Shown: positions 974-43,342 of the stretch, piece after piece | Position numbering within the stretch: the stretch's first letter is position 1 | How the letters are laid out: every line of letters starts with the position of its first letter | Origin: Patescibacteria group bacterium | GTDB lineage: Bacteria > Patescibacteriota > Patescibacteriia > JAXHNJ01 | Direction: 5' to 3' | Assembly: GCA_041649715.1 (NCBI GenBank) | Contig: JBAZMP010000001.1 | Span: 309,287-373,286 of the forward strand | DNA length: 64,000 nucleotides | Translations under genes and position numbers: made by a program | Notes under the pieces: generated by a model | What the model was told of the DNA's origin: nothing | What the model saw: the letters and a program-made list of their open reading frames with translations, nothing else | The model's database searches: none

Positions 974-1062
974 TCCCACGTTGAGACATTAGAAAAACAG
1001 CCCAAGCTCTAAAGTGCCGCTTAAAGATTGAATTTGTTAAATAGATAATAATAGGCTTTGTG

Positions 1063-1092
1063 GCGCCTCGCTGCGGCTCGGCGCCTTTTTTG
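1063..1092 (+). terminator. Intrinsic terminator after dinD
   Basis: GGCGCC-tcgctgcggctc-GGCGCC hairpin followed by TTTTTT. Confidence 0.5.
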
Positions 1093-1126
1093 GCTTGAAT
1101 AAAAGTAAGAAAAATGCTAAGGTAAA
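1086..1126 (+). promoter_or_regulatory. Conserved ~40-bp upstream element, copy 2 (TTGAAT-17 bp-TAAGGT) in front of the restriction-modification operon
   Basis: TTTTTTGGCTTGAATAAAAGTAAGAAAAATGCTAAGGTA matches copy 1 at 38 of 41 positions. Confidence 0.45.
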
Positions 1127-1213
1127 GGCATAAAATAACACAAATTTTGGTGGAAAATAGATTATAATACGGAGGTAAATTAAAAGAATTTTTGGGCAAT
1201 TAAATAAAAATAT

Positions 1214-3586
1214 ATGAATAGAAATGTAGTTGAAGAATATTTAAAAAAACAGAAAATAAAAGTCGTTGAGGAATTTGATTTTGAAAAAAAGAAAGTAAAA
1301 TATTCCGAAAAGATAAGAGGTTGGAAGATTGATAAATTTAGGGGCGATGAGGAAATCGTTAGAGCTTTTGTTCTTGCTAAACTTGTAAACGAATTGGGAT
1401 ATAAACCTGAGAATATTGAATTGGAAAAAGAATATGATATTGGTAGACCAAAGGTAAATAAACCCAGAATTGATATTATAGTTAAAGACGATAAAGACAA
1501 CGTTTTTTTGTATATTGAATTAAAAAGCCCCGCAGATTATGAAAAAGATAAGGATGAAGTAATTGAGAAACAACTTTTTAATCTTGCTTCACAAGAACAG
1601 GGCCAAGGTAAAAAAGTAAAATATCTCGTATTATATACAATTGAAATTGTTGAAACCCAGATAAAAGACAAATGTATTTTGATTGACTATGAAAAATTTA
1701 ATTCATTCAACACGTGGAAAGAAGTACGAAATTACGCAGATGAATTACCCGAAAGATATGAAAAAGCTCAAAAAGAACCATACGTAAAAGGTGGAAAAAA
1801 AGATTTAGAGACAAACTTTTCATATGAACAGCTTGATGGGCTGAGAAAAAATCTACATAATGTACTTTGGGGAGGTGGTGGAACAGATGACAACGATATT
1901 TTTTCGTCATTAGTAAATATTATTTTGGCAAAAATTCAAGATGAAAGCGAAAAAGAGGAAGGCGGAGAATATGACTTCCAAATTCGTTCATTTAAAGATG
2001 GCGAAAGTTTTGAAACCAACCAGCAACTTTTTATAAAAATAAATGATCTTTATATAAGAGCGTTAAAACAAAGATTAAATATTATTGACGAAAATGAGTT
2101 AAAAGAAAGCTTTGTAATTGATAAAAAGAAATTTTCTCTTGCAAAATTAAAATACACTATAATGCAAATCGAGAGATATTCATTTGTGGACGGGAAAAAC
2201 AGCTTTGACGGTAAAGATATTCTAGGAGACTTTTTCGAGGGTATTATTAGAGAAGGATTTAAACAAACAAAAGGTCAATTTTTTACGCATGTTAATATTG
2301 TAAGGTTTTTGCTTTGGGGGTTGCAACTTGATAAGCTAGCAATTGATAAAGTGAATAAAGATTTAGAAATTCCCTACCTAATAGATCCAAGCGCCGGTAG
2401 CGGCACTTTCCTGATTGAATATATGAAGTTTATTACCGAAAATCTCAAGAGAAGATTTAAAAGTAGACTAGCAAAAAAAAGAGACGTAGAGGACAAATTT
2501 AATCAATGGTTTATCCCTGACCACCGAGAAAATAAATGGGCACAACATTATATTTATGGCATAGAAACTAATTTTAATCTAGGTACTGCTACTAAAGTAA
2601 ATATGATTTTGCATGGGGATGGCTCAACTAATGTTTTTGTTAAAGACGGACTATTACCTTTTAATTATTACGACAAAGAAACCGCGCCGAACTATTTGAA
2701 GCAAAGCGAACAAGACAAAAACTACTTTAATAAAGAAGTAAATAAGCAATTTGACGTGATTATAACTAATCCTCCATTTAGTGTCACTTTGGATAATGAA
2801 ACAAAAGAGCATCTTACTAAAGAGTTTATTTTTGGAAGCACAAAAAACTCGGAAAATTTGTTTGTAGAAAGATGGTATCAATTATTAAAACCTAACGGAA
2901 GATTTGGGGTAGTTTTGCCAGAAAGTGTTTTTGATACAACAGAAAATAAATACATTCGTCTATTTATTTACAAATATTTTAAAATTAAAGCAGTAGTTTC
3001 TTTACCACAACTTACTTTTCAGCCGTTTACAAGTACTAAGACTAGTCTTTTATTCGCTCAAAAGAAAACTGATAAGGAAATTGAAGAATGGAATAAACTT
3101 TGGAGTAAATATAGTAGTGAATGGAGTGCTCTAAAAAATAAGTGTAAAAATTTATTATTGGTCTATTTAGAAAACAAAGACAAAAAGAAATTATCTTCAA
3201 TCAAAGATTTGTTAGAATCGGAGAAAAAAGAGATATTATTAAGAATGCTTAAAGATAATATTGAAGAAGATGATAAAAAATTATTAGCAAAAGAGCTGAT
3301 ATATAAATACAAAAGTGAATTAGTTGAACTTTGTGAATATGATAACGATACTAAAGATGTTTTTGGTTTTGTCAATACCTGGTGGGTTTTTAGTGAGGTA
3401 GCAAAAATACTCAATTACAAAATTTTTATGGCAGAAGTAGAAAATATTGGATATAAAAGGACTAAAAGAGCTGAAAAACCTATGCCAAACGAACTTTATC
3501 GCGTAAATGATAAAGGAGAAGTTTTAGTTGATGATGGCAGGATAGAAACTGCTTTAGATTATTTAAGAAAAGTGATATGGGATTAA
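1214..3586 (+). CDS. Restriction-modification bifunctional subunit: N-terminal HSDR_N-type PD-(D/E)xK nuclease domain fused to a gamma-class N6-adenine DNA methyltransferase (BcgI-A-like Type IIB, or a Type I M-like subunit)
   Basis: 790 aa. The N-terminal region has PRIDIIVKDDKDNVFLYIELKSP, a D..ExK nuclease motif. Methyltransferase motif I is LIDPSAGSGTFLIEY and motif IV is ITNPPFSV. The gene overlaps the downstream S gene by 10 nt and is extremely AT-rich. Confidence 0.75.
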   Translation: MNRNVVEEYLKKQKIKVVEEFDFEKKKVKYSEKIRGWKIDKFRGDEEIVRAFVLAKLVNELGYKPENIELEKEYDIGRPKVNKPRIDIIVKDDKDNVFLYIELKSPADYEKDKDEVIEKQLFNLASQEQGQGKKVKYLVLYTIEIVETQIKDKCILIDYEKFNSFNTWKEVRNYADELPERYEKAQKEPYVKGGKKDLETNFSYEQLDGLRKNLHNVLWGGGGTDDNDIFSSLVNIILAKIQDESEKEEGGEYDFQIRSFKDGESFETNQQLFIKINDLYIRALKQRLNIIDENELKESFVIDKKKFSLAKLKYTIMQIERYSFVDGKNSFDGKDILGDFFEGIIREGFKQTKGQFFTHVNIVRFLLWGLQLDKLAIDKVNKDLEIPYLIDPSAGSGTFLIEYMKFITENLKRRFKSRLAKKRDVEDKFNQWFIPDHRENKWAQHYIYGIETNFNLGTATKVNMILHGDGSTNVFVKDGLLPFNYYDKETAPNYLKQSEQDKNYFNKEVNKQFDVIITNPPFSVTLDNETKEHLTKEFIFGSTKNSENLFVERWYQLLKPNGRFGVVLPESVFDTTENKYIRLFIYKYFKIKAVVSLPQLTFQPFTSTKTSLLFAQKKTDKEIEEWNKLWSKYSSEWSALKNKCKNLLLVYLENKDKKKLSSIKDLLESEKKEILLRMLKDNIEEDDKKLLAKELIYKYKSELVELCEYDNDTKDVFGFVNTWWVFSEVAKILNYKIFMAEVENIGYKRTKRAEKPMPNELYRVNDKGEVLVDDGRIETALDYLRKVIWD

Positions 3587-4989
3587 ATAAATTTACAGTT
3601 GATTTTCAAAATATTGGTGAACAACAATTTTTAAGACCCAATTTTGGTTACAGGTATTTTTTTGATATTCAGAATGCGGAAATTTATCCTACAAAAGATA
3701 GTATTAAATTAAAATATGTCTTGAATGAGATGCCGATGAAGAAAGTAAGCAAGGGTGAATTAGAAGAGTCAGAAATTCTGATTGATATAGGAAATATTGA
3801 AAGAAGATTTAATAATTTAATAAATTTAGTAGAAGTAGATAGAATAGGTTCTGATAAAAATATAATGCAATATGGAGACATCATTATACCTAAATTGCAA
3901 CCACAAATGGGGAATATTTTTTTAAATTCTGGTCATAAAAGATTTATAGGATCTACCGAATTGCTTGAATATAAAATTAATGAAAATTATAATCCCATAT
4001 TCATTTATTACTTAATTACTTCTAATAAATTTCTTTTTGATCTAGCAAAATTGGAAAGTGGAAAAGCGCATAGAAGGGTAAATTCAGTAGATCTGTTAAA
4101 AATTAGAATTCCCTTAATATCTAAAGAATCGCAAGATTTAATTGTTGCTCAAATATGGCCGATTGAAAAGAAAATTAATGAACTAAAAAAACAAATTGAA
4201 CAACCTCAAAATGTTATTAATAAAGTTTTTGCAAGAGAATTTGGTTTTGATTTAGAAAAATATGAAAAGTTAAAGAAAGATAAGTTTTCCGAAGTAGATT
4301 TAAAAGATATTTTGAGACATAATTTTGTTAGAATAAGTTTTCATTTTCATCATAAAACTCTTATTGCCATTGAAAATAAATTAAAAAATAAGAATTATTG
4401 GGCGCCGGTTAATTCATTATTTAGTTTATTCGGTGGAAAAAGAATACCAAAGGGTAAGAGTTTTTCGAATATCGAAACGGACTATTATTATTTAAGACCT
4501 ACGGAAGTAAGTATTTGGGGTATTGATAAGATTAACGTTCCATTTATCCCTGTATCAATTTATGATCAGTTAAAGAGATATAAAATAGTAACGGATGAAT
4601 TTTGTATTTCAATTGTCGGTACTTTAGGGAAAACCGCGTTAATTAACACAGATATTTTAGATATAGGAAAAGATAATTTAATATTAAGTGAAAACTTTAT
4701 TAAACTAAAACCTAAAAAACATATAAATAGTTTATTTTATATTTACTTTTTTTATAGTTTTATTTTTGAAGCGCAAATTAATAGAGAATATACCATAACA
4801 TCAATAAAAAAATTAGGTATTGATAAATGGAATAATATAAAAATTCCATGTATTTCTATTATAAAACAGCAAAAAATTGTTGATGAAATCAAGGGTGAAT
4901 TAGACAAACAAGAAAAATTTTATAAGAAAATTGAAATGGAAAGAGATAAAATTGATGAGATTATTGAAAAAGTGATTATTCGTGAATAG
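3577..4989 (+). CDS. hsdS: Restriction-modification specificity subunit (HsdS / BcgI-B-like, two target-recognition domains)
   Basis: 470 aa. Two variable domains are separated by the conserved central coiled-coil spacer (LISKESQDLIVAQIWPIEKKINELKKQIEQ). The C-terminus has a matching repeat (IKQQKIVDEIKGELDKQEKFYKKIE). It is translationally coupled to the methyltransferase gene. Confidence 0.8.
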   Translation: MGLNKFTVDFQNIGEQQFLRPNFGYRYFFDIQNAEIYPTKDSIKLKYVLNEMPMKKVSKGELEESEILIDIGNIERRFNNLINLVEVDRIGSDKNIMQYGDIIIPKLQPQMGNIFLNSGHKRFIGSTELLEYKINENYNPIFIYYLITSNKFLFDLAKLESGKAHRRVNSVDLLKIRIPLISKESQDLIVAQIWPIEKKINELKKQIEQPQNVINKVFAREFGFDLEKYEKLKKDKFSEVDLKDILRHNFVRISFHFHHKTLIAIENKLKNKNYWAPVNSLFSLFGGKRIPKGKSFSNIETDYYYLRPTEVSIWGIDKINVPFIPVSIYDQLKRYKIVTDEFCISIVGTLGKTALINTDILDIGKDNLILSENFIKLKPKKHINSLFYIYFFYSFIFEAQINREYTITSIKKLGIDKWNNIKIPCISIIKQQKIVDEIKGELDKQEKFYKKIEMERDKIDEIIEKVIIRE

Positions 4990-5064
4990 ACTCATATTTA
5001 AGTCATTTTTACAATATCCATTGACCTAATTTATTTCAATTAATAATTATTAATTAAGAATATT

Positions 5065-5985
5065 ATGGCAAATCTCTATTGGAAAAAGAATAAAAAAATA
5101 TTAGCCGCTACCGAGACACCATTTAAAACAGAAGATGAACTTGAACGTTATCTATTAGATACCCGGGGGATTTTAAGCGAAATCAATATAATAAATAGGC
5201 AAATTAGGTCCAAAACGGTTTCAGGAATAGAAATTCCAGATATGATCGGAGTTGATAGCGAGGGTTCCATTGTTATTATTGAAAATAAAAATGTTCCGGT
5301 TGATGAAAGGATTATTTCTCAGGTACTTAATTATGCTCTTTGGGCAGAATCTAATCCAGATTCAATAAAGAATTTATGGCTTCAAGCTGATCAAGAAGGC
5401 GTGGAACCAGAATGGGACAATTTACAAATTCGCATAATGATAGTTGCCCCAGAAATAAAACCACATTTAGCAAAATTCATTTCAAAAATTGGATACCCAA
5501 TTGATTTATTAGAGATAAAAAAATTTAATATTAGTAAAGATGAATTTATTGTGTTAAATAAAATAGAACCAAATATAATTGATACAAAACCAGTACATGC
5601 AAAAAGAAATTATGATTATTCATATTATTCAACCAATCATAATAAGGAAAGTGTAAAAAAACTTGAAAAAGCTGTAAATAGCGTTGAAAATTATGTTAAT
5701 AAAAACAAATGGAAATTAGAAAAAAAATTTAACCAAGGTTATGTGGGCTTTAAATATGGTTTTCCCTTAGTTTTTGGCATACAGTGGTTAGGAACCAGAT
5801 CCTTCGGGTTTTTTTTCAAAATGCCTAAAGCAAAAATGAAAAAAATTATTGTTCCGGGCCTTGAATTTAAGGGTTATAATGATCGGTGGGATCAAGTAGA
5901 ATATAAAATTATTTCACCTACTTTTGACGTTAAAAAATTAAAACCAGTGTTTCTAGCTTCATACAATTATGTCAAAGGAGAATAA
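5065..5985 (+). CDS. PD-(D/E)xK nuclease-like protein of unknown function (restriction-endonuclease-like fold, possible NucS/DUF91-like core)
   Basis: 306 aa. IPDMIGVDSEGSIVIIENKN followed by QVLNYALWAE reads as D...ExK plus a QxxxY motif. The gene is AT-rich and sits inside the defense island. Confidence 0.45.
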   Translation: MANLYWKKNKKILAATETPFKTEDELERYLLDTRGILSEINIINRQIRSKTVSGIEIPDMIGVDSEGSIVIIENKNVPVDERIISQVLNYALWAESNPDSIKNLWLQADQEGVEPEWDNLQIRIMIVAPEIKPHLAKFISKIGYPIDLLEIKKFNISKDEFIVLNKIEPNIIDTKPVHAKRNYDYSYYSTNHNKESVKKLEKAVNSVENYVNKNKWKLEKKFNQGYVGFKYGFPLVFGIQWLGTRSFGFFFKMPKAKMKKIIVPGLEFKGYNDRWDQVEYKIISPTFDVKKLKPVFLASYNYVKGE

Positions 5986-6031
5986 CATTTTTTCTTTAAA
6001 AGTTGCGCTATAATATAATAAGATATGCAGC

Positions 6032-6598
6032 ATGAGTAATCTTGAAACATTTTTCGAACAATTCGAAGAATGGGTGCTAAAAGATATTAAAATAGTACTA
6101 GAATTAGTAAATAAAGAAGGTAATTCATTAGCCCCTGATAGAAGAGTGGTGGTTTGGCGGCGCCCGCTTGTCGCCGGAGTTATATTAATATGTTGCGCTA
6201 TCGATACATTAGCCGCATTTCGTTATGGCCGAACTAATAATAATGTGGGAACATATTTTATGCGCTTTGTTAGAGATTATTTTGCGCAAAGCCGTGACAC
6301 TAGATATAATGATGAGCAAATCTATAAGGGGTTACGTAATGCATTATTACACGGCTATTCTCTTGGATCAGATTTAGCATTAAGTCATACTAGCGCTTCA
6401 CGGCATTTGACGAAAGAAGCAAACAAAATAGTTATAGATGTATTTTCACTGCAGCAAGATTTAGAAAAAGTATATTCTATCTATAAAAGTGAATTGAAAA
6501 ATGGACAACATATTCCAGAATTTAATGATAGATGGAATTACGCACCTCTTATTCAATATTTTCCTGATATAGATTTAAAACTTAATAGCAGAAATTAA
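6032..6598 (+). CDS. Hypothetical protein (defense-island associated)
   Basis: 188-aa ORF with no recognisable motif. It follows the nuclease-like gene 46 nt downstream and is followed by a strong terminator. Confidence 0.5.
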   Translation: MSNLETFFEQFEEWVLKDIKIVLELVNKEGNSLAPDRRVVVWRRPLVAGVILICCAIDTLAAFRYGRTNNNVGTYFMRFVRDYFAQSRDTRYNDEQIYKGLRNALLHGYSLGSDLALSHTSASRHLTKEANKIVIDVFSLQQDLEKVYSIYKSELKNGQHIPEFNDRWNYAPLIQYFPDIDLKLNSRN

Positions 6599-6691: not shown

Positions 6692-6871
6692 TTAAATAGT
6701 CAAATCGTGAATAGGTACACTAGCTGCCCAACGTTTTATCCATTGAACAGAATCTATAGCATTTTGTTTTGAGGAATAACCCTCACTCCAAGCAACGAAT
6801 TCGTTGTTTGCAGCAACAAGACGCCATCGGTACTCATTTGCGTTATCACGATAGATTTCGAATCTAATCAT
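6692..6871 (-). CDS. YegP/UPF0339 (DUF1508) family small protein, absent from the ORF track because it is under 60 aa
   Basis: Reverse-strand translation gives MIRFEIYRDNANEYRWRLVAANNEFVAWSEGYSSKQNAIDSVQWIKRWAASVPIHDLTI (59 aa), the classic DUF1508 pattern FEIYkDkageyRfRLkA.NGEiia.SegY.sk. Confidence 0.7.
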   Translation of the reverse strand: MIRFEIYRDNANEYRWRLVAANNEFVAWSEGYSSKQNAIDSVQWIKRWAASVPIHDLTI

Positions 6872-7293
6872 GATTTTTTTCCTTTGTTAGACTATACTTA
6901 GGAGTCGACCTTTAATTTACTCCCAGGACAAAAACCAAATAATTTAGTTCCTATCAGGGGAGAATTAAAAGCGACTTAATCTAGATATAGAATAAGCGCC
7001 GGATTTTACCTCGCCAGCTTTTTCAAAGAGTTTTTAACAGCTACATACTAACGAATAATAATGTCTCTGTCAAGTAGGTTTATTATTTTAGCTAAAAAGC
7101 TTATAATAAATCCATGTCCAAATACTACAACTCTAAGCGCACCAAACATCTTTTTGACCCTACCTTTTTTAACGCTATTTGTTATAAGCACTAAATCCGA
7201 AATACGAAACTCTAAACAAATTCTAATTTCTCAAATCCGAAATTCGAAACTGAGGGTTTTAAAAGCCAAAGACGATAACGAAAAACAAGCGGT

Positions 7294-7405
7294 AGAGGGG
7301 GTCCGGGGGAAAAACTGAAAGCCAAACGGCCATACGGAACAACCTTACCCACCTCTCGCGGTTTTTTTCCCCCGGAACTTTTGCTACTTTTAGTTATAAA
7401 AGTAG
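7294..7405. repeat. Structured repeat family A, copy 1 (GGGGTCCGGGGG ... CCCCCGGAAC long hairpin plus a small 3' hairpin)
   Basis: GGGGGTCCGGGGGAAAAACTG...CGGTTTTTTTCCCCCGGAAC, then CTACTTTTAGTTATAAAAGTAG. Related copies lie at 10409..10530, 12596..12755 and 12866..12955. Confidence 0.7.
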
Positions 7406-7409
7406 AAAT

Positions 7410-7525
7410 ATATCAGTACAGACAAAAAAGTAAGTAGGGGATAATCAAAAAAGACTGTCTACCCTTCGAGGCTCAAGCCTGTCCTGAGTGGCATCGAAGG
7501 ACACCTCAGAGTGACAGTTTTATTT
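7410..7525. repeat. Structured repeat family B, copy 1 (AGTAGGGGATAA..CTGTCTACCCTTCGAGGCT-[variable]-CACCTCAGAGTGACAGTTTTA)
   Basis: The conserved 5' and 3' arms can pair (CTGTCTACCC with GGGTGACAG) around a variable core. Copies lie at 10141..10215, 10560..10640, 10700..10795 and 12757..12790. Confidence 0.65.
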
Positions 7526-7695
7526 TGATTCTTTTTCACCAAAAAAACAAACAATCAACCAAGACATTTTTTATCCGCCCGCTAGCCTTAGCGTGTTTTT
7601 TGTATGAAGAAGTTTATCCACCTTGACTTAGAAAGGTATATATATTAGTGTTAAGTTAGTACTAATTCAGTAAATTAGCACAATCTACTAATTTT

Positions 7696-8283
7696 ATGAA
7701 ATGGCTAGATTTTGAGCGAAAAATTAAGAGTAAAAATATTAAGCTGTTCACGCCGCTTGATGTGCAGAGATTTTTAGGCCGGTCTAAAATAGCCGCCCGT
7801 TTTTTGATCCATCGCCTGAAAAAAAATGGCTATATTGTGAGCCTCAAACGCGGTTTGTATAAGCTGTCCGATGAACAAATTCCGGATCTGTATCTGGCCA
7901 ATAATATTTACGCCCCCTCGTATGTTTCCCTGGAATTCGCCCTTTCGTACCACGGAGTCATTCCCGAAACTGTCTATGAGATAACTTCGGTTACCACCAA
8001 GGCCACCCGCCGGTTTGAGGCGCTGGGAAAAGTTTTTTCTTACCACAAAATAAAAAAACCGGCTTTTACCGGCTATGTCATCCAAAAACAGGGCGGGTTG
8101 GGTTTTCACGTCGCCGAACCAGAAAAGGCTTTCGTGGATGCGAATTATTTTCGGCTCTTGGACGGCCGAAAACCGCTGTCCCGCTTCAACAAGGATAAAA
8201 TTGATTTAAAAAAGGCCTTGTTTTATGCCGCTCTTTTCGGCAATCAGAAACTTAACAATATAATTAAAACAACGCTTCAATGA
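7696..8283 (+). CDS. abiEi: Type IV toxin-antitoxin system antitoxin AbiEi (winged-HTH transcriptional regulator)
   Basis: 195 aa. The N-terminus MKWLDFERKIKSK...FTPLDVQRFLGRSKIAARFLIHRLKKNGYIVSLKRGLYKL is typical of AbiEi. The gene overlaps the downstream gene by 4 nt (ATGA). Confidence 0.75.
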   Translation: MKWLDFERKIKSKNIKLFTPLDVQRFLGRSKIAARFLIHRLKKNGYIVSLKRGLYKLSDEQIPDLYLANNIYAPSYVSLEFALSYHGVIPETVYEITSVTTKATRRFEALGKVFSYHKIKKPAFTGYVIQKQGGLGFHVAEPEKAFVDANYFRLLDGRKPLSRFNKDKIDLKKALFYAALFGNQKLNNIIKTTLQ

Positions 8284-9023
8284 TTTCCCAGGAATTAATA
8301 AAAAAAATAGCCAGTCAGAATAAAACAGCGGATTTTCCCAATATTGTCCGCGAGTATTTTCAGCACCTTTTTTTATCCGAGCTCTATAGATTATCCGGCG
8401 CCGAGAATTTGCTTTTTAAGGGCGGGACCGCTTTGCGCATTATCTACGGCAGTCCGCGCTTTTCCGAGGATTTGGATTTTACCCTGATCGGCGTTGAAGG
8501 TTACCGGAAAAAGGAATTCGCGGAAAGCCTGTTTCTCAGCGTTTTGACCGAGATTGAAAAAATCGGCATTAAGGTGGAGATAAACCGGAAGTCGGATGAG
8601 ACCCGCGAGGGTTATTTTGGCGATGCGAACTATCAGGTTTATGATTATCCCGAAACGTCCGTGAGTATAAATATATCCTCAAGAGAGGGAAAAGATATTA
8701 AGGGCGAGATTGATTCCATCGCCAATGATTTCATACCGACTTATAATATTCTGCATCTGTCAAAAAATGTGTTGGTGGAAGAAAAAATAACGGCCGCGAT
8801 CACTCGGGCGAAACCCAGAGATTTTTACGATGTCTATTTTATCCTTAGAAAAAATTTGCTGGCGACAGAAAATAAAAAAATACTCCCTGACATCCTTGAT
8901 AAATTGAATAACACTGATATTAATTTTACCCAGGAATTAGGCATTTTCTTGCCGAAGGATCAGCAGCAAATAGTGAAAGATTTCAAGAATATTTTAACTT
9001 CTGAAATAAAGCGTTATATTTAG
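8280..9023 (+). CDS. abiEii: Type IV toxin-antitoxin system toxin AbiEii (DUF1814 nucleotidyltransferase)
   Basis: 247 aa. It has the nucleotidyltransferase motif LFKGGTALRIIYGSPRFSEDLDFTL (GS...DxD), and its size and operon partner are typical. Confidence 0.75.
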   Translation: MISQELIKKIASQNKTADFPNIVREYFQHLFLSELYRLSGAENLLFKGGTALRIIYGSPRFSEDLDFTLIGVEGYRKKEFAESLFLSVLTEIEKIGIKVEINRKSDETREGYFGDANYQVYDYPETSVSINISSREGKDIKGEIDSIANDFIPTYNILHLSKNVLVEEKITAAITRAKPRDFYDVYFILRKNLLATENKKILPDILDKLNNTDINFTQELGIFLPKDQQQIVKDFKNILTSEIKRYI

Positions 9024-10059: not shown

Positions 10060-10830
10060 GCAGATAATATTATTGTCATACTGAGGAGCCATGAGATCCT
10101 GAGTCGCATCGAAGGACGAATGGCGTCTCGAAGTATGACCGTTTAGACACATAAAAGCCTGTCTATCCTTCGAGGCTCGCATTGCTCGCACCTCAGGGTG
10201 ACAGTTTTAGTTTTATTTGAAATTCGGTGCATCGGATTTAATCGTCAGGCGGCGAAGCGTTGACGAGCCGCCACTAAGAAAAAGTTAGCAGTAATTTAAG
10301 CTTTCAGCAGGCTGGGGTCTCTGCCTACGGCAGACAGGTGGGGGCTTCATCGCCTTAAATATTTTACAGCGTTTTTTGCTATTAAAAATAACGAAAATTT
10401 AATGGGCGAGGGGGTCCGGGGGAAAAACTGAAAGCGAATGGGCTACGCGGTAAAACCAACCCCCTGTGCTCGCGGTTTTTTTCCCCCGGGGCTTTTGGTT
10501 CTTTTGGCCTCAAAAGAACAAGACAATCAGCCTTGCCCCCTAAAATAAAAATTTTCTAAAGGTAAAAACTCACCCTTCGAGGCTCCCATTCGACGCGGCT
10601 CATGCTCGCACCTCAGGGTGACAGTTTTATTATTTTGGTTTTTGGAGTCTGCCCTGAGTGGCAACGAAGGGGTTACAAAAGTTGAAATACTTCGGCACAG
10701 ACTAAAGATTGAGTAAGGGATAAACAGAAGAAACCGTCTACCCTTCGAGGCTTAGGCGTTGCCTTCGCACCTCAGGGTGACAATTTTAGTTTGCATTTAT
10801 CAACTTTATAAGATTAAAATAAAAGACCCT
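10060..10830. repeat. Non-coding island densely packed with structured repeat modules (families A and B, a TTAGCAG..GCTTTCAGCA module and an AGCCTTGCCCCC..AAAATAAAA module)
   Basis: Family A copy at 10409..10530. Family B arms at 10158..10215, 10571..10640 and 10735..10795. A CTGCCCTGAGTGGCAACGAAGGGGTTACAAAAGTTGAAA module at 10644..10690. No credible ORF. Confidence 0.7.
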
Positions 10831-10879
10831 TTTGTTCAAGCAGTGGGTCTTTAGGCATCTGCTAGCTTGCGGATGGGCG

Positions 10880-11188
10880 CTACGAGAGGAACTGGATCCA
10901 GCCATGGCGGGTGCGAAAATCGAATTTGATGAGATGATCGTGCGGTCCCTCCCGGTCAACCGAGTAGGCCTTTATTATCCAGCGTTCGCCGGAGACGTCT
11001 GCCCGCTCCATCCCTCGGATAGCGGCGTTAACGGCGGTTTGAGGCGCCATGGGCGGCATACCTCGTTTCCACGGCTTCGGCGTGATCTTGAATTCTACCC
11101 ATTTCTGTTCGTGATTCTGGCCCACGAACAGAGCGATGAGGGCGTCGAACTTCGACGGCCCGTCGAGGATCTCAATACGCTGTGCCAT
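10880..11188 (-). CDS. Hypothetical protein (GC-rich)
   Basis: 102-aa ORF with an excellent Shine-Dalgarno sequence AGGAGGT 6 nt upstream of the ATG on the minus strand. The overlapping plus-strand 178-aa ORF is Arg/Pro-rich junk. Confidence 0.5.
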   Translation of the reverse strand: MAQRIEILDGPSKFDALIALFVGQNHEQKWVEFKITPKPWKRGMPPMAPQTAVNAAIRGMERADVSGERWIIKAYSVDREGPHDHLIKFDFRTRHGWIQFLS

Positions 11189-11637: not shown

Positions 11638-12531
11638 ATGCAAAAAAAATCCTGGCTTAGCCTCATTTATTTTCTGGTTTTTGGCTTATTAATAATTTTT
11701 ACTTTCTTATTCAAAAGCCGTTCTCTGCTGTATGTAGTAATTCCCATTTTTTTTGGTTTTATCGTGGTTTTGAGTTTGATAAATGTTGGAGGCAAGATGT
11801 TTTCTTTTTCCAAAGGTTTGATGACCATGAGTAAAACCGGGCCGGTTTTTACCTCTAAGGTCTGGTCTTGGCGGGAAGGGGAAACGATTGATTTCGCCGA
11901 TATTTTTCCGGGGTTGAAGGACGTGACCTCATTTTTCAGTGAAATGCCACTGCCGAAAATAAAACCGGAGAGAGTGGCGATTGGAGAAAAAGAGGGGGTG
12001 AATTATAATATTTACCGGCTTAATTTCACGAATATCGTAAAAGTTCCGGCCAGCCGCAAACCGGGCTTCCGGCCGCTGATAATCCACGGGGTTAAAGCGC
12101 CGGGAATGAGCGGGGGCTTGAATTCAAGTGTGAGCCAGAGCTTTAATATTTTGCAGGCCAGATTGACTTTTCCTGGATCTTTCCCCGGCCGTTTGATTAT
12201 CCAAAGAGTTGCCGGGCCGACCTTGGGCCGTGATATTGATCTGGAAAGCGTGGAATTTAACAAAAAAGTTCAGGTCTATACCAATCAGGCCAAAATCGCT
12301 TACCAGATTTTATCCCCGGATTTTATGGACTGGTATTTGAAACTGCCTGATCAGCCGGTTATCGCTTTTGACCAACAGATATGTTATTACACCCTGATCG
12401 GATTCAGTAATAAGGGTGAGGAAGAGATTACCGCCGATATTGAACAATTGATTGACCGCGTCCTGCATTCAGGGGCTTTAACCTTATCCCAAATCCCAAA
12501 TCCTAAATCCAAAACAAATCCCAATATCTAA
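11638..12531 (+). CDS. Hypothetical membrane protein (two N-terminal TM helices plus a globular domain)
   Basis: 297 aa. TM helices are LSLIYFLVFGLLIIFTFLF and VVIPIFFGFIVVLSLINV. The last roughly 12 codons (PNPKSKTNPNI) are encoded by an AAATCC-type repeat. Confidence 0.55.
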   Translation: MQKKSWLSLIYFLVFGLLIIFTFLFKSRSLLYVVIPIFFGFIVVLSLINVGGKMFSFSKGLMTMSKTGPVFTSKVWSWREGETIDFADIFPGLKDVTSFFSEMPLPKIKPERVAIGEKEGVNYNIYRLNFTNIVKVPASRKPGFRPLIIHGVKAPGMSGGLNSSVSQSFNILQARLTFPGSFPGRLIIQRVAGPTLGRDIDLESVEFNKKVQVYTNQAKIAYQILSPDFMDWYLKLPDQPVIAFDQQICYYTLIGFSNKGEEEITADIEQLIDRVLHSGALTLSQIPNPKSKTNPNI

Positions 12532-13175
12532 ATCTGAAATTCGAAACACGGCGGCGTCGTCTCATTTTATGGTGAACAAAAGTAATCAGAAAGCGTGGGG
12601 GCTCCGGGGGTTTTCCTCAGTCCGCAGGGGTTTTAGCGTCTATTTACGCAAATCTTGAACGAATTAAAACCCCCGGGGCTCTTTGGTACTTTCTGGCCCC
12701 AGAAAGTACAAGCAAACAGCCTTGCCCCCAAAAATAAAATTTTCAAAAAAGTAAAACTAACCCTTCGACGCGGCTCAGGGTGACAAGAGGAGAAAGGCGG
12801 CGAAACCAGGGGCGAGCCGCCTAGTGAATAAAAATTAGCAGATACTTTATGCTTTCAGCAAAACAGGGGTCCGGGGGGAATGCTCGACTTTGCGGCTTTT
12901 AGCATTTATATGAGTTTTAAGGGGGCAATCATTCCCCCCGGAACTTTTGCTACTGGAGCCTGCCCTGAGTGGCACCGAAGGGGTTACAAAAGTTGAAAGA
13001 TAGCATCTAAAAAAACAGCTAAAGTAAAACAAAATAATAAACCAAAAAATTACTCTCGCCCGTCTTACGCATAGGTCGATCTTTTTGGCTAATTTAAGCA
13101 GAAATAACAAAAAGACGTTAATTTTGACTAAATCGGCTAAAATCGCTATAATAAAGTTAAATACAGGAGGGGAAA
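12532..13175. repeat. Non-coding island of structured repeat modules (family A copies 3 and 4, a family B fragment, and others)
   Basis: GGGGGCTCCGGGGGTTTTCC...AAAACCCCCGGGGCTC at 12596..12680. GGGGTCCGGGGGGAATG...CATTCCCCCCGGAAC at 12866..12955. CTGCCCTGAGTGGCACCGAAGGGGTTACAAAAGTTGAAA at 12958..13000. Confidence 0.7.
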
Positions 13176-14480
13176 TTGAGTAAACAAATGCCGTATATTT
13201 TGTTATCAGACATCAAGCAATATTTAGGCCAAGAGGTGCTTCTTAAAGGCTGGGTTTTTAACGCCCGGTCTTCCGGAAGCCTCTTTTTTTTACAGCTGCG
13301 GGACGGCTTGGGAGAGGTTCAGGGAGTAGTTTCCAAAAAAGAAGTCAGCCCGGAGGTTTTTGACGCCGCAAAGAAGCTTCAGATAGAATCTTCCGTGGAA
13401 GTCACCGGGATTTTGAAAGAAGAGGCTAAATCGCCCTCGGGTTTTGAAATTCAGGTTAAGGATTTGAAAGTCATTCAGATAGCCTCCGATTACCCGATCG
13501 CCAAAAAAGAGCACGGCCCGGATTTTCTGATGGATAACCGGCATTTGTGGCTTCGTTCTTCCCGCCAGCGGGCGATTTTAAAAATAAGGGATTCGGTTAT
13601 TTGGGCCGCCCGCAAATTTTTTAAAGACAATAATTTTACGCTGACGGATTCGCCGATCCTGACGCCGACCGCCTGCGAAGGGACGACCACGCTTTTTAAA
13701 ACCAAATATTTTGAGGAAGACGCTTATCTCGCGCAGTCCGGACAATTATACATTGAAGCGACGGCCGCCGCCCTGGGCCGGGTTTATGATTTCGGGCCTA
13801 CATTCCGGGCGGAAAAATCCAAGACCCGTCGTCACCTGATGGAATTCTGGATGCTGGACGCGGAAGCGGCTTTTGTGGAGCATGAGGAAAACTTAAAGAT
13901 CCAGGAAAATCTGATCAGTTCCATTGTTAAATATGTTTTGGAAAATAATAAAAAAGAGCTGGCAGTTTTGGAAAGAGACATAAAACCTTTGGAAAAAATT
14001 AAGCCGCCTTTTTACCGCAAGAAATATGAAGAGGTTATTAAGGATCTGCAAAGCAAGGGAAGCCCGATAAAATCCGGGGATGATTTCGGCGGAGACGAGG
14101 AAACCCTGATTTCCAAGGATCTGGACAAACCGGTTTTTGTCACGCATTGGCCGAAAAGTATAAAACCTTTTTACATGAAACAGGATCCCCGAAATCCCAA
14201 ATTAGTTTTGAATGCTGATTGCCTCGCCCCGGAAAGTTTTGGCGAGATCATCGGCGGTTCGCAAAGGGAAGATGATTATGAAACTTTGAAAGCCAACATG
14301 GAAAAAGCGAAAATTCCCATCAAGGATTACCAGTGGTATTTGGATTTGCGCCAATACGGCACTTTTCCGCACTCCGGTTTTGGCTTGGGAATTGAAAGAA
14401 CCGTGGCCTGGATCTGCGGATTAAAGCATATCCGCGAGACGATACCGTTTCCAAGAATGCTGAATAGACTTAGGCCATAG
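13176..14480 (+). CDS. asnS: Asparagine--tRNA ligase
   Basis: 434 aa. Class II motif 2 is FRAEKSKTRRHLMEFWMLDAE and motif 3 is GFGLGIERTVAWICGLKHIRETIPFPR. It has an N-terminal OB anticodon-binding domain and the size typical of AsnRS. A TTG start sits 5 nt after AGGAGG. Confidence 0.85.
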   Translation: MSKQMPYILLSDIKQYLGQEVLLKGWVFNARSSGSLFFLQLRDGLGEVQGVVSKKEVSPEVFDAAKKLQIESSVEVTGILKEEAKSPSGFEIQVKDLKVIQIASDYPIAKKEHGPDFLMDNRHLWLRSSRQRAILKIRDSVIWAARKFFKDNNFTLTDSPILTPTACEGTTTLFKTKYFEEDAYLAQSGQLYIEATAAALGRVYDFGPTFRAEKSKTRRHLMEFWMLDAEAAFVEHEENLKIQENLISSIVKYVLENNKKELAVLERDIKPLEKIKPPFYRKKYEEVIKDLQSKGSPIKSGDDFGGDEETLISKDLDKPVFVTHWPKSIKPFYMKQDPRNPKLVLNADCLAPESFGEIIGGSQREDDYETLKANMEKAKIPIKDYQWYLDLRQYGTFPHSGFGLGIERTVAWICGLKHIRETIPFPRMLNRLRP

Positions 14481-14499
14481 TTGGTATTAATTTGTTATT

Positions 14500-14672
14500 T
14501 TTAAATCCTAAATTCTAAATCCGAAAATCTAAACAAATCTTAAATTCTAAATTCCAAATTCAAAACCGGTTTGGAACATTGGAAAATTAGGGCTTCGAAT
14601 TTGTTTCGGATTTAGGATTTCGCGCTTCGAATTTATCTGAATTTTGGTGCTTGTAATTTGGAATTTTGAAGA
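14500..14672. repeat. Long AT-rich palindromic hairpin of the AAATYC/GAATTT family (probable bidirectional terminator)
   Basis: AAATCCTAAATTCTAAATCCGAAAATCT...TTTCGGATTTAGGATTT. The two arms are near-perfect reverse complements across more than 60 nt. Confidence 0.65.
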
Positions 14673-15125: not shown

Positions 15126-15146
15126 GAATATTAGTATTAAAATAAT

Positions 15147-16421
15147 ATGGAAGATCAAACTCAACCCAATCCGACAAAGGAAAAACGCCCTCAAAAAACC
15201 AGCTTGCTGGCCATTCTTATTTTGATCGCCGTCCTGCTCGGGGCGATCATTATCGCCGGCTACTTCTATTTTGTTCCGGCGGACAGGGAGAATAAAAACA
15301 CCAATCAGGTGGCGGTCAGTTCCAATTCTAATGAAAATCAGAACACCAGCCAGCTTTTAGGCGGAGATGAAGATGAGCACGGCTGCAAAGGTTCGGCCGG
15401 CTATTCTTGGTGCGAAGCTAAGCAGAAATGCTTGAGAATTTGGGAGGAGGTCTGCCCAAGTAGCTTTAATAATTTGGGAAATAGCGCCCCCACTTTATCG
15501 GGCGAATTCTGGATGATTCAAAATTATACCGCTAAATTAAAGAGTATTAATATTGCCAATAAAGAGATTAAAGAATGGACGGAATATCCAAATCAACCTC
15601 AAAATAGCGAAAATGAAATACCGGCGCCAAAAGGTAATCACATGTTATATAATAAAAAAGATACTGACGGAAATTGGGCCTTGTATGTTTCTGAGACCAA
15701 TGGTAAAAATGAAAAACTTATTACGACTGGCGGGGTGTGTACAGATGGTCCGTGTTCCAAAGAAAATACTTATGGAGTGGGCAAAATTTCTCCGGATGGG
15801 CAATATGTTTCATTCAGAAAAGGAGAAAATAGCATTGTTAAAAATCTTGTCACTGATAAAGAAACCATTCTGCCCTTAAAACTGACTCTCGCTCCTGCGG
15901 CTTTTACTCCTCTTCAGACATATGTTTACACAGTTTCACAAAAGGAAAATGAGGTTAATTATTACCTGGAAATCGGCAAGTTATCAGATACTGAATTTCG
16001 CTTGATTAATCCCGCACTTTCCCTTTTTTATGCCATTGATTTTTCGCCGGACGAAAATTATTTTGCCATTAGTGGTAATCAGGGAGTTTGCATCTATGAG
16101 ACAAAGACCGGCCAGTTATTAGACAAAAAAGAGAGTAATGATATGTCAGGAATTTACGAAATAGTTTGGCTATCAAACAATAAGCTTATTTTGCGGACTC
16201 ATAATTCAGTTTTGCATCAATTTACTTTAATCGATCATAAAATTACCGAAGAAATAATATACAAAGCCGAATATTTAGACTCCCTTTTTAGAATAGATGA
16301 CAATAATGTTCTTTTGCGATCCGGCGGTAATGATTTGATAGTGATTAATACGACTACCGGAACTATAACCGAAGTTTATTCAAGTGACGATTATTTCGCT
16401 ATTTTAGGGTCAAAGGAATAA
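15147..16421 (+). CDS. Signal-anchored secreted protein with a Cys-rich module and TolB-like beta-propeller repeats
   Basis: 424 aa. The N-terminal leader KEKRPQKTSLLAILILIAVLLGAIIIAGYFYFVPADRENKN is shared with the next gene. Repeats such as SPDGQYVSF and FSPDENYFAISG are propeller-like. Confidence 0.6.
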   Translation: MEDQTQPNPTKEKRPQKTSLLAILILIAVLLGAIIIAGYFYFVPADRENKNTNQVAVSSNSNENQNTSQLLGGDEDEHGCKGSAGYSWCEAKQKCLRIWEEVCPSSFNNLGNSAPTLSGEFWMIQNYTAKLKSINIANKEIKEWTEYPNQPQNSENEIPAPKGNHMLYNKKDTDGNWALYVSETNGKNEKLITTGGVCTDGPCSKENTYGVGKISPDGQYVSFRKGENSIVKNLVTDKETILPLKLTLAPAAFTPLQTYVYTVSQKENEVNYYLEIGKLSDTEFRLINPALSLFYAIDFSPDENYFAISGNQGVCIYETKTGQLLDKKESNDMSGIYEIVWLSNNKLILRTHNSVLHQFTLIDHKITEEIIYKAEYLDSLFRIDDNNVLLRSGGNDLIVINTTTGTITEVYSSDDYFAILGSKE

Positions 16422-16447
16422 TTATATTAAATAGTCGAAAAAAATAA

Positions 16448-17311
16448 ATGCCAAACCAACCTCAAATTAATCCGCCAAAGGAAAAACGCCCTCAAAAAAC
16501 CAGCTTGCTGGCCATTCTTATTTTGGTCGCCGTTCTGCTCGGCGCGATCATTGTCGCCGGCTATTTCTATTTTGTTCCGGCGGACAGGGAAAACAAAAAT
16601 GCCAGCCAGGCGGCGGAAAACTCTAATATTAATGTAAATTTAAATAATAATGAAAATCAGAATAATAATTCAAATAATAGCGCTAGCGCAAATGAGGTAA
16701 AGACAGCCATTGGCTTGGTCAGCTTAAGCTGTGCCACGAAATCTGACTGTGTGTTAATTGGTAAAGAGAAAGATTATGATTGTTGCGGCATTGGTAGTTG
16801 CCTCGACTATTCTCAGGGGATTTGGGTGGCGGTGAATAATCGTTCTTTCCAAGAAATTATCGAGCGACATAATTGTAATATAGCCTGCCCTGATAATATG
16901 GAGGTATGTTTTTATAATGATTATTATGAAGTAGGATGCCAGAATAACCGCTGTCAAACGATAAAAGTAACTAAGACTACTGAAAATTCCGATTCAAATG
17001 AAATAAGTGTAATCGGCGGTCAGGTGAGTTTGAGTTGTTCTTCAAAGCAAGATTGTCGATTGATTGACAAAGAAAAGGACTATACCGTTTGTTGTTCTCA
17101 ATATTCTCAACCGGACTATACCAAAGGGATTTGGGTAGCGGTCAATAGTAGTTCTTTCCAAAAAATTGTTGGCTCTAACAGCGCCTGCAAATTGAAAGTC
17201 TGCCCGGATAATATGGAAGTATATTATAGCGGTAATGTTCCGTATGAAGTGGCATGCCAGAATAACCGCTGTCAAACGATAAAAATAAACAGGACTATTG
17301 TTGAGTATTAA
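16448..17311 (+). CDS. Signal-anchored secreted protein with a tandem duplicated 8-Cys domain
   Basis: 287 aa. The leader is about 92 percent identical at the DNA level to that of 15147..16421. There are two roughly 90-aa repeats (VSLSC..DC.LI.KEKDY..CC......GIWVAVN..SFQ.I......C....CPDNMEV.Y......EV.CQNNRCQTIK). Confidence 0.65.
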   Translation: MPNQPQINPPKEKRPQKTSLLAILILVAVLLGAIIVAGYFYFVPADRENKNASQAAENSNINVNLNNNENQNNNSNNSASANEVKTAIGLVSLSCATKSDCVLIGKEKDYDCCGIGSCLDYSQGIWVAVNNRSFQEIIERHNCNIACPDNMEVCFYNDYYEVGCQNNRCQTIKVTKTTENSDSNEISVIGGQVSLSCSSKQDCRLIDKEKDYTVCCSQYSQPDYTKGIWVAVNSSSFQKIVGSNSACKLKVCPDNMEVYYSGNVPYEVACQNNRCQTIKINRTIVEY

Positions 17312-20039: not shown

Positions 20040-20067
20040 ACAAAATAATTTTAGAATATTGCTAATT

Positions 20068-20195
20068 ATAAATTTCAAATTACAAATCTCAAGTTCCAAA
20101 TAAATTCCAATGACCAAAATTTCAAACTTTTTAAACTATCTGGTGTTTTGGTCATTTGATCATTGAAAGTTGGTGCTTGGAATTTGGAATTTGTT
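20068..20195. repeat. Long palindromic hairpin of the AAATYC family after aspS
   Basis: ATTCCAATGACCAAAATTTCAAAC...GTGTTTTGGTCATTTGA...TTGGAATTTGGAATTT. The arms are reverse complements. Confidence 0.6.
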
Positions 20196-34724: not shown

Positions 34725-34862
34725 TGAAATAAATTCCAATATCCAAATTCAAAACACGCCCCAGAGGCGTTTTTTTGTATTAAAAAAATGGATCGTTAGA
34801 GTTTTGGATTTCGAATTTGGAATTTGGGTATTGTTTGGAACTTGGAATTTGTGATTTGGTAT
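34725..34862. repeat. AAATYC-family palindromic hairpin with a nested canonical terminator (ACGCCCCAGAGGCGTTTTTTT)
   Basis: ATTCCAATATCCAAATTCAAAAC ... GTTTTGGATTTCGAATTTGGAATTTGG. The inner GC hairpin plus T-tract lies at 34752..34776. Confidence 0.6.
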
Positions 34863-37671: not shown

Positions 37672-37845
37672 CAAACTAAATTCTAAATCCGAAATCCTAA
37701 ATTCTAAACAAATCATAATATCTAAATCACAAATTCGAAACCCCATTAGAAATTCTATTTTTAAATAGGAAACCGGTTTGGGACATTGGAAAATTATTGC
37801 TTCGAATTTGTTTAGGATTTAGAAATTGAGATTTGGAATTTTATC
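37672..37845. repeat. AAATYC-family long palindromic hairpin
   Basis: AAATTCTAAATCCGAAATCCTAAATTCTAAACAAATC ... GATTTGTTTAGGATTTAGAAATT. The arms are complementary. Confidence 0.65.
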
Positions 37846-42372: not shown

Positions 42373-42434
42373 ATCGAGATTCGAGATTGGTGATTCGTGA
42401 TTCGTATCCGAATCCCGGATCTCGAATCACGAAC
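42373..42434. repeat. Palindromic hairpin of the GATTCG/CGAATC family
   Basis: CGAGATTCGAGATTGGTGATTCGTGATTCG ... CGAATCACGAAC. Confidence 0.55.
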
Positions 42435-42465
42435 ATATAATAATTAACAGAAGGAGAACAAAACT

Positions 42466-42882: not shown

Positions 42883-42982
42883 CGAGATACCGGACCCCGT
42901 GAAGGTTTGCCTTCACATGGCTTTCCGGGCGGGAAGAGGAAAATCTCGTCTTTCCACCTGGAAGATAATTAATCATAAAAAT

Positions 42983-43336: not shown

Positions 43337-43342
43337 GGCTAA

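Follow-up and report, generated by a model that had tools for sequence, protein, structure and literature searches.

Two families of hairpin-forming repeats in gene-free islands of a Patescibacterial genome

Structured repeat families are unexpected in Patescibacteria because the genomes of these bacteria are very small and tightly packed. A stretch of 64,000 nucleotides from contig JBAZMP010000001.1 of a Patescibacteria group bacterium (hereafter the window) therefore raises the question of what the two such families that it carries, A and B, represent. Both were first described at positions 7294-7525 in a sequence-only reading, A as an extended hairpin followed by a second small hairpin and B as conserved arms that can pair around a variable core. 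The analysis covered 84 kb of this contig (382 kb in total; metagenome contig k141_3042223, ENA ERZ27247363) and, for every related copy elsewhere, a stretch of 1-15 kb (loci with L numbers); genome and metagenome collections were scanned in single shots, and taxon labels are those given in the records. The window contains three gene-free islands (6872-7695, 10060-10880 and 12532-13187), the first of which holds positions 7294-7525. All copies of A and B in the window were confined to these islands, and both families recurred in the two downstream islands, as the sequence-only reading had noted. The explanation that we modestly favour is that the islands are clusters of non-autonomous palindromic DNA repeats that form RNA hairpins when transcribed, in which B and its short relative C belong to a known class of repetitive extragenic palindromic (REP) sequences, while A is a new family resembling REP doublets forming hairpins (REPINs).

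A search with the pattern TCCGGGGG-N45-75-CCCCCGGRRCTYTT revealed four copies of A, each on the plus strand of the window (7302, 10415, 12603 and 12870), where 100 shuffled sequences gave an expectation of 0. The arms were 57-60 nt apart in all four copies and each copy was followed by the second hairpin (hp2), which bore out the described architecture. A fifth copy was located 3 kb upstream of the window, and none was found in the 10 kb downstream of it. Each copy consists of a long hairpin (P1), a run of 4-7 U directly after it, which was present in every member including the divergent ones, and hp2. P1 begins with an outer segment, GGGG/CUUUU, and continues with a near-invariant G+C foot (GGGGGTCCGGGGG / CCCCCGGAAC), in which UCC pairs with GGA and GGGGG with CCCCC. 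Above the foot there are 2-5 pairs that vary by copy (AAAAA/UUUUU, UUUU/AAAA, GAAUG/CAUUC and others) and an apical region, so that the G and C runs are separated by 54-69 nt in total in typical copies. The stem of hp2 is A/U-rich, 9-11 bp long, closed by a G-C pair and capped with a GYYN tetraloop. In the first copy, A1, P1 (7297-7382, plus strand) possesses an outer GGGG that pairs with CUUUU through G-U pairs, a foot in which UCCGGGGG+AAAAA pairs with UUUUU+CCCCCGGA, and a variable apex before the U-run; its hp2 (7383-7406, plus strand) reads CTACTTTTA-GTTA-TAAAAGTAG, and the two hairpins together gave a folding energy of -38.9 kcal/mol (z = -2.9).

Discrete types could be distinguished among the apical regions (alpha, beta, gamma and others); each type possesses its own leader of 25-50 nt and was about 80-85% conserved between this genome and the metagenome-assembled genome (MAG) JBDRMK01. 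The alpha leader of A1 (GATAACGAAAAACAAGCGGTAGAG; 7265-7296, plus strand) is conserved upstream of alpha copies in other genomes, with blastn matches in L071, L073 and L079 that begin at 7265-7275. The remaining copies, all on the plus strand, are A2, of the alpha type (leader, P1 and hp2, 10373-10522); A3, of the beta type (leader, P1 and hp2, 12549-12711), whose orthologue lies upstream of the asparaginyl-tRNA synthetase (AsnRS) gene in L073; and A4, of the gamma type (P1 and hp2, 12862-12999), which carries a copy of motif C (C4, 12964-12981) in its hp2 loop. A covariance model, R1, built from 21 A copies, matched A1 at 7294-7408 (102 bits), A2 at 10407-10522 (92 bits), A3 at 12595-12711 (89 bits) and A4 (48 bits). 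In addition, an orphan A 5' arm (GGGGTC...TGGGGG) was found at 10314-10344 (plus strand), split by the small palindrome TCTGCCTACGGCAGACAGG in the same layout as in a complete copy in L088. A box, TTAGCA-N14-16-(C/T)AGAAT, is conserved 3-5 nt upstream of the beta, gamma and A' copies, and in a more distant subfamily the conserved unit starts exactly at GGGGG and ends at a third small hairpin, CGCC-GGA-GGCG.

Covariation among the A copies, a check that the sequence-only reading had proposed, gave strong support to this fold. In a MAFFT alignment, 93.3% of the pair cells held standard pairs compared with 78.8% in shuffled alignments (0 of 500 shuffles reached the observed value), 13 of the 28 pairs had changed on both sides, and the covariation score was 0.398 vs. 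0.151, falling to 0.16 or less when the partners were slid. An alignment of 39 sequences fitted to R1, which is biased towards structure by construction, gave 94.1% vs. 77.7%, double changes at 15 of the 28 pairs and a score of 0.434 vs. 0.155. Even the foot covaried in divergent members, from CC/GG to CU/AG and UU/AA via U-G intermediates, the outer G-U pairs of P1 changed to A-U or G-C only, and the hp2 stems contained 278 Watson-Crick pairs and a single G-T pair. The A fold is therefore under selection, either as RNA or as single-stranded DNA. The folding energy of A showed no asymmetry between the strands, and the sole strand-specific feature is the putative outer G-U helix. Long-range complementarity was observed at two other loci: the A 5' arm of L077 (4492-4519) is 93% complementary over 28 nt to 4714-4741, 194 nt downstream, which would permit a different fold (-97 kcal/mol, z = -5.3) or an element of 250 bp bounded by terminal inverted repeats, and 18 nt of the A apex in L081 (6407-6424) are perfectly complementary to a downstream terminator-like hairpin (6532-6549). 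Such a far-downstream inverted A arm was found in L077 only, and no comparable long-range complementarity was found in the window.

The copies of A were not confined to the window: they occur in many other genomes, and the differences among them preserve the pairings, so that neither part of the refuting condition set in the sequence-only reading applied. With R1, 41 matches (39 distinct) were found at E<1e-5 in Patescibacteria genomes and metagenomes, some of which had been missed by the pattern scans. The strict A pattern gave 13 genuine matches among the GTDB species genomes, and their hosts were several Patescibacteria-group MAGs (including five JBDRMK01 contigs), Magasanikbacteria, Peregrinibacteria, Kerfeldbacteria, Parcubacteria and two MAGs labelled Gammaproteobacteria in their records (CAYQCK01 and CAZINP01). 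A fourteenth match, in an Acidobacteria MAG, was rejected as a low-complexity sequence without hp2. A pattern anchored on the 3' arm and hp2 alone recovered 22 metagenome loci, and the 5' arm was present wherever the upstream sequence sufficed (one locus ends early), being degenerate in two loci and interrupted or shortened in three. In IMG/VR, the A pattern gave chance matches only, in G+C-rich contigs, and blastn of positions 7294-7525 against phage and plasmid records gave no match. The Rfam scan suggested by the sequence-only reading identified neither family: Rfam 15, searched at gathering and permissive thresholds with the window and 15 related loci, had nothing at E<10 on A or B, and its matches elsewhere in the scanned sequences were tRNA and RNase P only. 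Literature searches with A sequence strings, and on repeats and RNAs of Patescibacteria, returned nothing relevant. Family A is thus previously undescribed, being absent from both Rfam and the searchable literature.

The copies of A were always intergenic: 19 were in the sense and 7 in the antisense orientation between co-directional genes, 8 lay in convergent gaps and 1 in a divergent gap, a tally in which a few entries are duplicates of one site in overlapping loci. Published REPs likewise favour co-directional and convergent gaps (PMC3733652). Head-to-head pairs of A copies from different subfamilies, 60-150 nt apart and with conserved spacers, were present in L069, L071, L073, L079, L081 and L083, and REP head-to-head heterodimers show similar behaviour (PMC3733652). 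Near-identical units of about 165 nt with sharp borders occurred at unrelated loci, namely L084 and L097 (both from whole-genome shotgun project FLOH01) and L091, L096 and L098 (from other metagenomes), and sharp borders were also seen in a second A subfamily. Presence and absence of modules differed even at an orthologous site: upstream of AsnRS, whose protein is 92% identical, the window and L073 share the beta copy, while B5-D2-A4-C4 is present in the window and not in L073, and an inverted alpha copy is present in L073 and not in the window. A 10-nt direct repeat, AAAGTAAAAC, around B5-D2-A4 was considered as a target duplication and rejected; it is not evidence of duplication because its left junction falls within a conserved linker-B unit, of which island 2 holds another copy. 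Small unrelated palindromes were inserted in the A 5' arm (window 10320-10338 and L088), in the P1 apex (L086 and L100) and in the hp2 loop, and they left the fold unbroken. We noted that some of these palindromes are of the TCYGCC-N4-GGCRGA-CAGG and CCTGCC...GGCAGG types (window 10320-10338 and L088, and the hp2 region of L074 and L090), and that in two lineages palindromes of the TCYGCC/CCTGCC type have entered the A 5' arm at the same position, while such palindromes also occur in hp2 loops. No recurring neighbour protein family was found at the A loci.

For family B, the arm CTGTCTACCCTTCGAGGCT (with up to 3 mismatches) was found at 7455, 10159 and 10734, and the core CCTTCGA-N-CTCAGRGTGAC at 10167, 10574, 10742 and 12762, with 0 expected in each case; the A-pattern and B-core copies share one strand. 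There are five copies, B1-B5, and one inverted copy, B0. Read on the minus strand, B consists of (C)TGTC-ACCCTGAGG, a variable part and CCTCGAAGGGT-AGACAG, and in the folds the arms paired around the variable core as originally described. B1 (7455-7517, minus strand; TGTC-ACTCTGAGG...CCTCGAAGGGT-AGACAG) possesses a longer loop and is followed by TTTTATTTTG on the plus strand. B2 (10159-10204, minus strand), the long B3 (10570-10624, minus strand), whose loop holds a degenerate short B core, and B4 (10734-10783, minus strand) are likewise followed by a T-run on the plus strand, so that four of the five B copies have this feature. B5 (12760-12786, minus strand) is a short form (ACCCTTCGA-CGCGG-CTCAGGGTGAC), and the same 23-nt form is widespread in IMG/VR contigs. 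B0 (10074-10139, plus strand) is TGTC-tagged, lies opposite to B1-B5 (TGTCATACTGAGG...CTCGAAGTATGAC) and folds at -29.4 kcal/mol (z = -4.1). Motif C (CCTGAGTGGCANCGAAGG), of which the window holds four copies, is a short B core in reverse orientation. C1 (7483-7500, plus strand) lies inside the loop of B1 and C2 (10098-10115) inside that of B0, C4 is 80% complementary to B5, and C was also nested in hp2 loops, in A4, L071 and L105. B and C were found next to A in the window's own lineage only (the window, L071 and L078), which indicates that A and B are independent families that have been joined here. Neither this independence nor the repeats within the variable core of B, the nesting of the islands and the wider family of B had been recognised in the sequence-only reading.

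The search for relatives of B led beyond Patescibacteria. A scan of IMG/VR with CCTTCGA-N5-35-CTCAGGGTGAC gave 55 loci, most of which clearly carry the same motif, in a short form of 23 nt that is repeated in AT-rich contigs and a long form that contains a G+C hairpin and occurs in G+C-rich contigs; one long form (L021) is almost identical to B2. On its sequence, B belongs to a cross-phylum repeat family. Several copies of the 23-nt form (gcCCTTCGACTACGCTCAGGGTGACa) are found in each of the AT-rich viral contigs L012, L026, L037 and L055, frequently with 5-20 nt between the motif and a start codon downstream. In another contig (L016/L025), B-type hairpins lie on both sides of a gene encoding a single-domain GIY-YIG protein of 100 aa, and in L030/L053 a B-type core lies about 1.2 kb from another GIY-YIG gene. 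Relatives of the L016 gene in IMG/VR were too few for testing the flanking rule. Single-domain GIY-YIG genes were also present in the Patescibacterial loci L070 and L091. In L070 (7400-7900, minus strand), a frameshifted one lies between a duplicated tRNA 5' half and the intact tRNA, with GATCCCGCTTCGCGGGAT-type hairpins upstream of it, between the gene and the duplicated tRNA half; this Patescibacterial arrangement may represent a tRNA intron or homing element, or else a unit of Ssn type. In L091 (241-620), a Patescibacteria-like contig with an A copy 5 kb from the GIY-YIG gene, the gene is followed by CCTCCCCTTACGAAGGGGAGG and TTCCCCCTTCGTAAGGGGGAA hairpins of a type other than B.

These features place B near two related groups of described repeats. 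The CGTC-tagged REPs of Di Nocera et al. (2013) include TGTC as a listed tag variant and dRS3 as a member, and no transposase is known for them (PMC3733652). The Neisseria NTS or 'Ssn-related motifs' (SRMs) of Chenal et al. (2025) flank genes for small single-domain GIY-YIG nucleases (Ssn; cd10448), are cut by these nucleases as single-stranded DNA at a point a few nucleotides to the 5' side of the hairpin, and modulate transformation (PMC11893778). B carries the terminal tag of the class (CGTC, with TGTC and CCTC accepted), which reads ..TGTCAC(C/T)CTGAG.. on the minus strand in B1-B5 and TGTCATACTGAGG on the plus strand in B0. Like the CGTC-REPs, dRS3 and NTS, B is an imperfect palindrome with a variable loop that is intergenic, clustered and present in both orientations, and like the NTS, its CCCTGAGG...CCTCGAAGGG core flanks the small GIY-YIG gene of L016. 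The CGTC-REP layout comprises a stem of 8-9 bp with A-T in the first two pairs, a loop of 4-5 nt (longer in some Bradyrhizobium) and a CCA-like tail (PMC3733652). The stem of B, ACCC-(bulge)-GAGG, has about 9 bp in addition to the outer CTGTC/GACAG, with A-T as the first pair and C-G as the second, the loops range from 5 nt (B5) to 35 nt, and the tail is AGA. Unlike the known members, B holds other repeats in its loops, and its host phylum lies outside the 2013 survey. The resemblance in tag and hairpin architecture supports the assignment of B and C to the CGTC/TGTC-tagged REP-type hairpins of the dRS3/NTS/SRM class, with incomplete membership.

Besides A, B and C, the islands contain module D, which occurs twice, and two conserved types of linker, all on the plus strand. 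D1 (10248-10312) comprises a GGCGGC..GCCGCC hairpin and TTAGCA-N15-CAGCAG, the leader that precedes beta, gamma and A' copies, and D2 (12796-12865) comprises the same hairpin and a TTAGCA-N15-CAGCAA leader. The linker between hp2 and B (7407-7454) is shared with 10690-10733 and with L078, where 7369-7474 is 91.5% identical and the composite A-hp2-linker-B is kept as a unit. A partial hp2-linker unit at 10643-10733 consists of C3 (10653-10670), the 3' half of hp2 and the linker; its segment 10643-10687 is 95.6% identical to 12954-12998, and the unit shows 85% identity to L078. The second linker type (CAATCAGCCTTGCCCCCTAAAATAAAA...GTAAAAAC) is present at 10523-10569 and 12712-12759. The bacterial interspersed mosaic elements (BIMEs) of E. 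coli and the neisserial intergenic mosaic elements (NIMEs) are likewise extragenic, combine several palindromic units and linkers in varying order and differ between related genomes, while the module sequences are different. Given the nesting of modules, the head-to-head pairing of A copies and the gain or lack of modules from one related genome to another, the islands are best regarded as mosaic repeat clusters of this kind, and by analogy they are most likely the Patescibacterial counterpart of BIMEs and NIMEs.

A was likewise compared with known elements. ERIC, Correia/NEMIS, RUP and BOX are co-transcribed long-hairpin MITEs (miniature transposable elements with inverted repeats); they possess target duplications at terminal inverted repeats, and each is limited to a single genus or family. 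A shares with them an imperfect palindrome of about 100-130 nt that is modular and RNA-foldable within transcripts, but it lacks target duplications and is spread across Patescibacteria. Like REPINs, which are REP doublets mobilised by RAYT, P1 has two inverted conserved arms around a spacer, forms a hairpin of about 85 nt and keeps its stem by compensatory change, and the family has multiple copies that lie between genes, pair head to head and have been retained in related lineages (PMC3116915, PMC3733652). The arms of A also start with GGGG, as do the GGGGWSAS arms of the 'TIRtrons' (PMC3116915, PMC3733652), yet the arm GGGGTCCG does not fit GGGGWSAS. In contrast to REPINs and the REP-RAYT system, A has no GTAG tag and no Y1 transposase was found with it in the window or the Patescibacterial loci, it is always accompanied on one side by a second hairpin, to which some lineages add a third, and its foot is nearly invariant across class-level distances. 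A link to RAYT or TIRYT proteins by database search was also tried and given up, as it returned more than 7,900 Y1 transposases without taxon labels, among which the Patescibacterial ones were not separable.

If the islands are clusters of palindromic DNA repeats, a plausible course of events can be outlined. We infer that B and C would fold as hairpins on transiently single-stranded DNA and be recognised in trans by a small sequence-specific enzyme for single-stranded DNA, for which an Ssn-like GIY-YIG nuclease is the best candidate. This enzyme would cut or seed recombination beside them, which would account for their spread, for the nesting in loops and for the clustering beside an acquired defence block. 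In A, the inverted arms surround a spacer that comes in several types and are followed by a short conserved hairpin, the build of a REPIN or of a long-hairpin MITE, and a putative trans-acting protein may read the invariant foot and maintain the family, including its presumed mobility. When RNA polymerase reads through, the hairpins of A and B would act as 3'-end, terminator or stabiliser structures. The intergenic placement, the head-to-head pairs, the nesting, the differences in modules, the sharp-bordered units, the Watson-Crick purity of hp2, the equal folding energies of the two strands, the tag layout of B, the B-type cores beside or near GIY-YIG genes and the clustering at the defence block all count for this explanation.

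Several results weigh against it. Neither a target-site duplication nor a conserved insertion site was found at the sharp A borders of L077, L095, L100 and L086, so that A does not behave as a classical MITE at these sites. Searches with phmmer using RAYT and IS200 TnpA queries detected no Y1 transposase in the window or in any Patescibacterial locus, no GIY-YIG, Y1 (RAYT/IS200) or other transposase gene flanked by A arms was found in any locus, and there was no GIY-YIG, Y1 or other transposase gene in the 84 kb of the contig. Moreover, the stem of B is longer than that of the CGTC-REPs and bulged, its second pair is C-G rather than A-T, and it lacks the CCA tail. The published SRM pattern, HGTCWYN(0-2)YYVSBRHN(0-5)WNVSBRGN(0-2)RNCYNB, had 0 matches in the window; this pattern is narrow, because it also missed the hairpins that flank the GIY-YIG gene of L016. 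Three further features of A would also suit an RNA gene, namely the 5' GGGG and 3' UUUU, which could form a G-U helix on one strand only, the foot variants that pass through U-G intermediates, and the sharp start of the unit at GGGGG.

These last features lead to the reading, which we consider unlikely, that the A copies are independently transcribed, multi-copy structured small RNAs of about 90-150 nt, with the 5' end at GGGGG and P1 closing the molecule. The apical domain would then be variable and specific to subfamilies, the invariant foot and the loop of hp2 would be bound by a protein, and in this lineage the composite A-hp2-linker-B could be a single RNA of about 230 nt that ends at the B hairpin and its T-run. 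Counting for such RNAs are the strong covariation of both helices (94% paired vs. 78% in shuffles, 15 pairs with double changes), the sharp 5' border, a U-run after P1 in even the divergent members, outer G-U pairs that turn only into A-U or G-C, and a composite kept as a unit in L078. The conserved TTAGCA/AGAAT box upstream of the beta, gamma and A' copies counts for them as well, and the 60-150 nt within head-to-head pairs would leave room for divergent promoters. However, the 14-16 nt spacing of this box is short for a sigma-70 promoter, and -10-like hexamers showed neither positional enrichment nor a box at a fixed distance across family A. The equal folding energies of the strands, the near absence of G-U pairs from hp2, the tolerance of A copies for palindrome inserts, truncation and loss between relatives, the association with B in this lineage only and the lack of an Rfam match also speak against RNA genes. 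Among other known structures considered, the core motifs of the hammerhead and other small ribozymes were absent, Y RNA had only GGUCCG in common with A (with no bulged-C helix and no Rfam match), and integron attC sites, 6S RNA and the signal recognition particle RNA were dropped. A combined version is similarly improbable, in which A is a phylum-wide Patescibacterial structured RNA (about 120-150 nt, two or three hairpins, a protein-bound invariant foot, an apical domain exchangeable in discrete types, and several differing copies per genome) and B and C are targets of an Ssn-type single-stranded DNA nuclease that polices incoming DNA. The suggestion of the sequence-only reading that the families are MITE- or REP-like elements or a small RNA holds in part: B proved REP-like in its TGTC tag and hairpin architecture (PMC3733652, PMC11893778) and in the GIY-YIG-flanking core of L016, while the strongly covarying hairpins of A fit REPIN- or MITE-like DNA and a small RNA alike, with no target-site duplication, transposase or conserved promoter found.

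Transcription could matter in a different way if A and B were not mobile and had been selected as cis-acting 3'-end elements, that is, intrinsic terminators or mRNA stabilisers, that were duplicated locally. P1 is a stem with a G+C foot directly before 4-7 U, T-runs follow B1-B4, and the copies lie downstream of genes and almost never between divergent genes. We nevertheless regard this explanation as quite improbable, because 7 of the 26 copies in co-directional gene runs are antisense (against 19 sense), a single gap can contain as many as five stacked hairpins, no U-run follows hp2, a generic terminator scan called B4 only, with no excess over shuffles, and units that are nearly identical turn up in unrelated surroundings, some in MAGs whose labels name other phyla. 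The last group of alternatives, which takes the islands for integron-like attC sites, for an array of CRISPR-like or other guide RNAs, or for products of chance or assembly, is effectively refuted. The conserved feet, the variable tops, the single orientation in the window and the cassette-like gene groups between the islands recall such arrays, but the sequence contains no RYYYAAC/GTTRRRY boxes, the gene lists no integrase, the 84 kb no integrase or Cas-like gene, and the spacing is not regular. Chance is contradicted by the expectation of 0 for the A and B patterns, and an assembly artefact by the occurrence of the same region, including the islands, in an independent sample (L106, SRR8542065).

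The islands come after a low-GC block (24-31% GC) that contains a Bro-N gene as well as an N6_Mtase/Eco57I restriction-modification fusion. In their vicinity are an AbiEi/AbiEii pair and a DUF1508 gene, and AsnRS comes after the third island. All five A copies in the 84 kb fall within 16 kb around this restriction-modification/Bro-N/AbiE block, and the closest relatives of the non-coding modules were in Patescibacteria MAGs. The low-GC block (1000-6000 and 6692-9023) contains the fusion and three open reading frames (ORFs) without a Pfam match, with Bro-N before it and DUF1508 and AbiEi/AbiEii after it, and resembles an acquired defence island. We also observed long AT-rich palindromes with AAATCC/GGATTT-like units of roughly 7 nt at gene 3' ends (14495-14670, 20062-20193, 34730-34858, 37677-37841 and 42411-43447), of which only left arms are present at 7185-7259 and 12483-12557; the stretch 12483-12531 encodes the final codons of a DUF3137 ORF. 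These palindromes are possibly generic bidirectional terminators of this genome, and in L078 the whole A-B island is enclosed by two arms of one of them. Elsewhere in the window there are two class-II aminoacyl-tRNA synthetase paralogues (tRNA-synt_2; 13188-14480 and 18660-20039) 4 kb apart, and two pairs of diverged direct repeats: 15139-15338 / 16440-16639 (200 nt, 84%), at the starts of neighbouring ORFs, which may mark paralogous genes, and 45759-46038 / 48465-48744 (280 nt, 79%).

With its foot conserved by sequence and the remainder by structure, family A points to an unrecognised protein-nucleic acid system, whether REPIN-like or a new RNA. Should the combined RNA reading be correct, A would be a multi-copy ribonucleoprotein or guide-like RNA in organisms with genomes of about 1 Mb, and an Ssn-type nuclease would police incoming DNA in bacteria that depend on DNA uptake. 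As family B demonstrates, a large branch that spans phyla, the CCCTGAG...CGAAGGG type, is missed by the published SRM pattern, and B would extend the CGTC/NTS repeat class, recently tied in its NTS branch to site-specific single-stranded DNA nucleases that modulate transformation (PMC11893778), to Patescibacteria.

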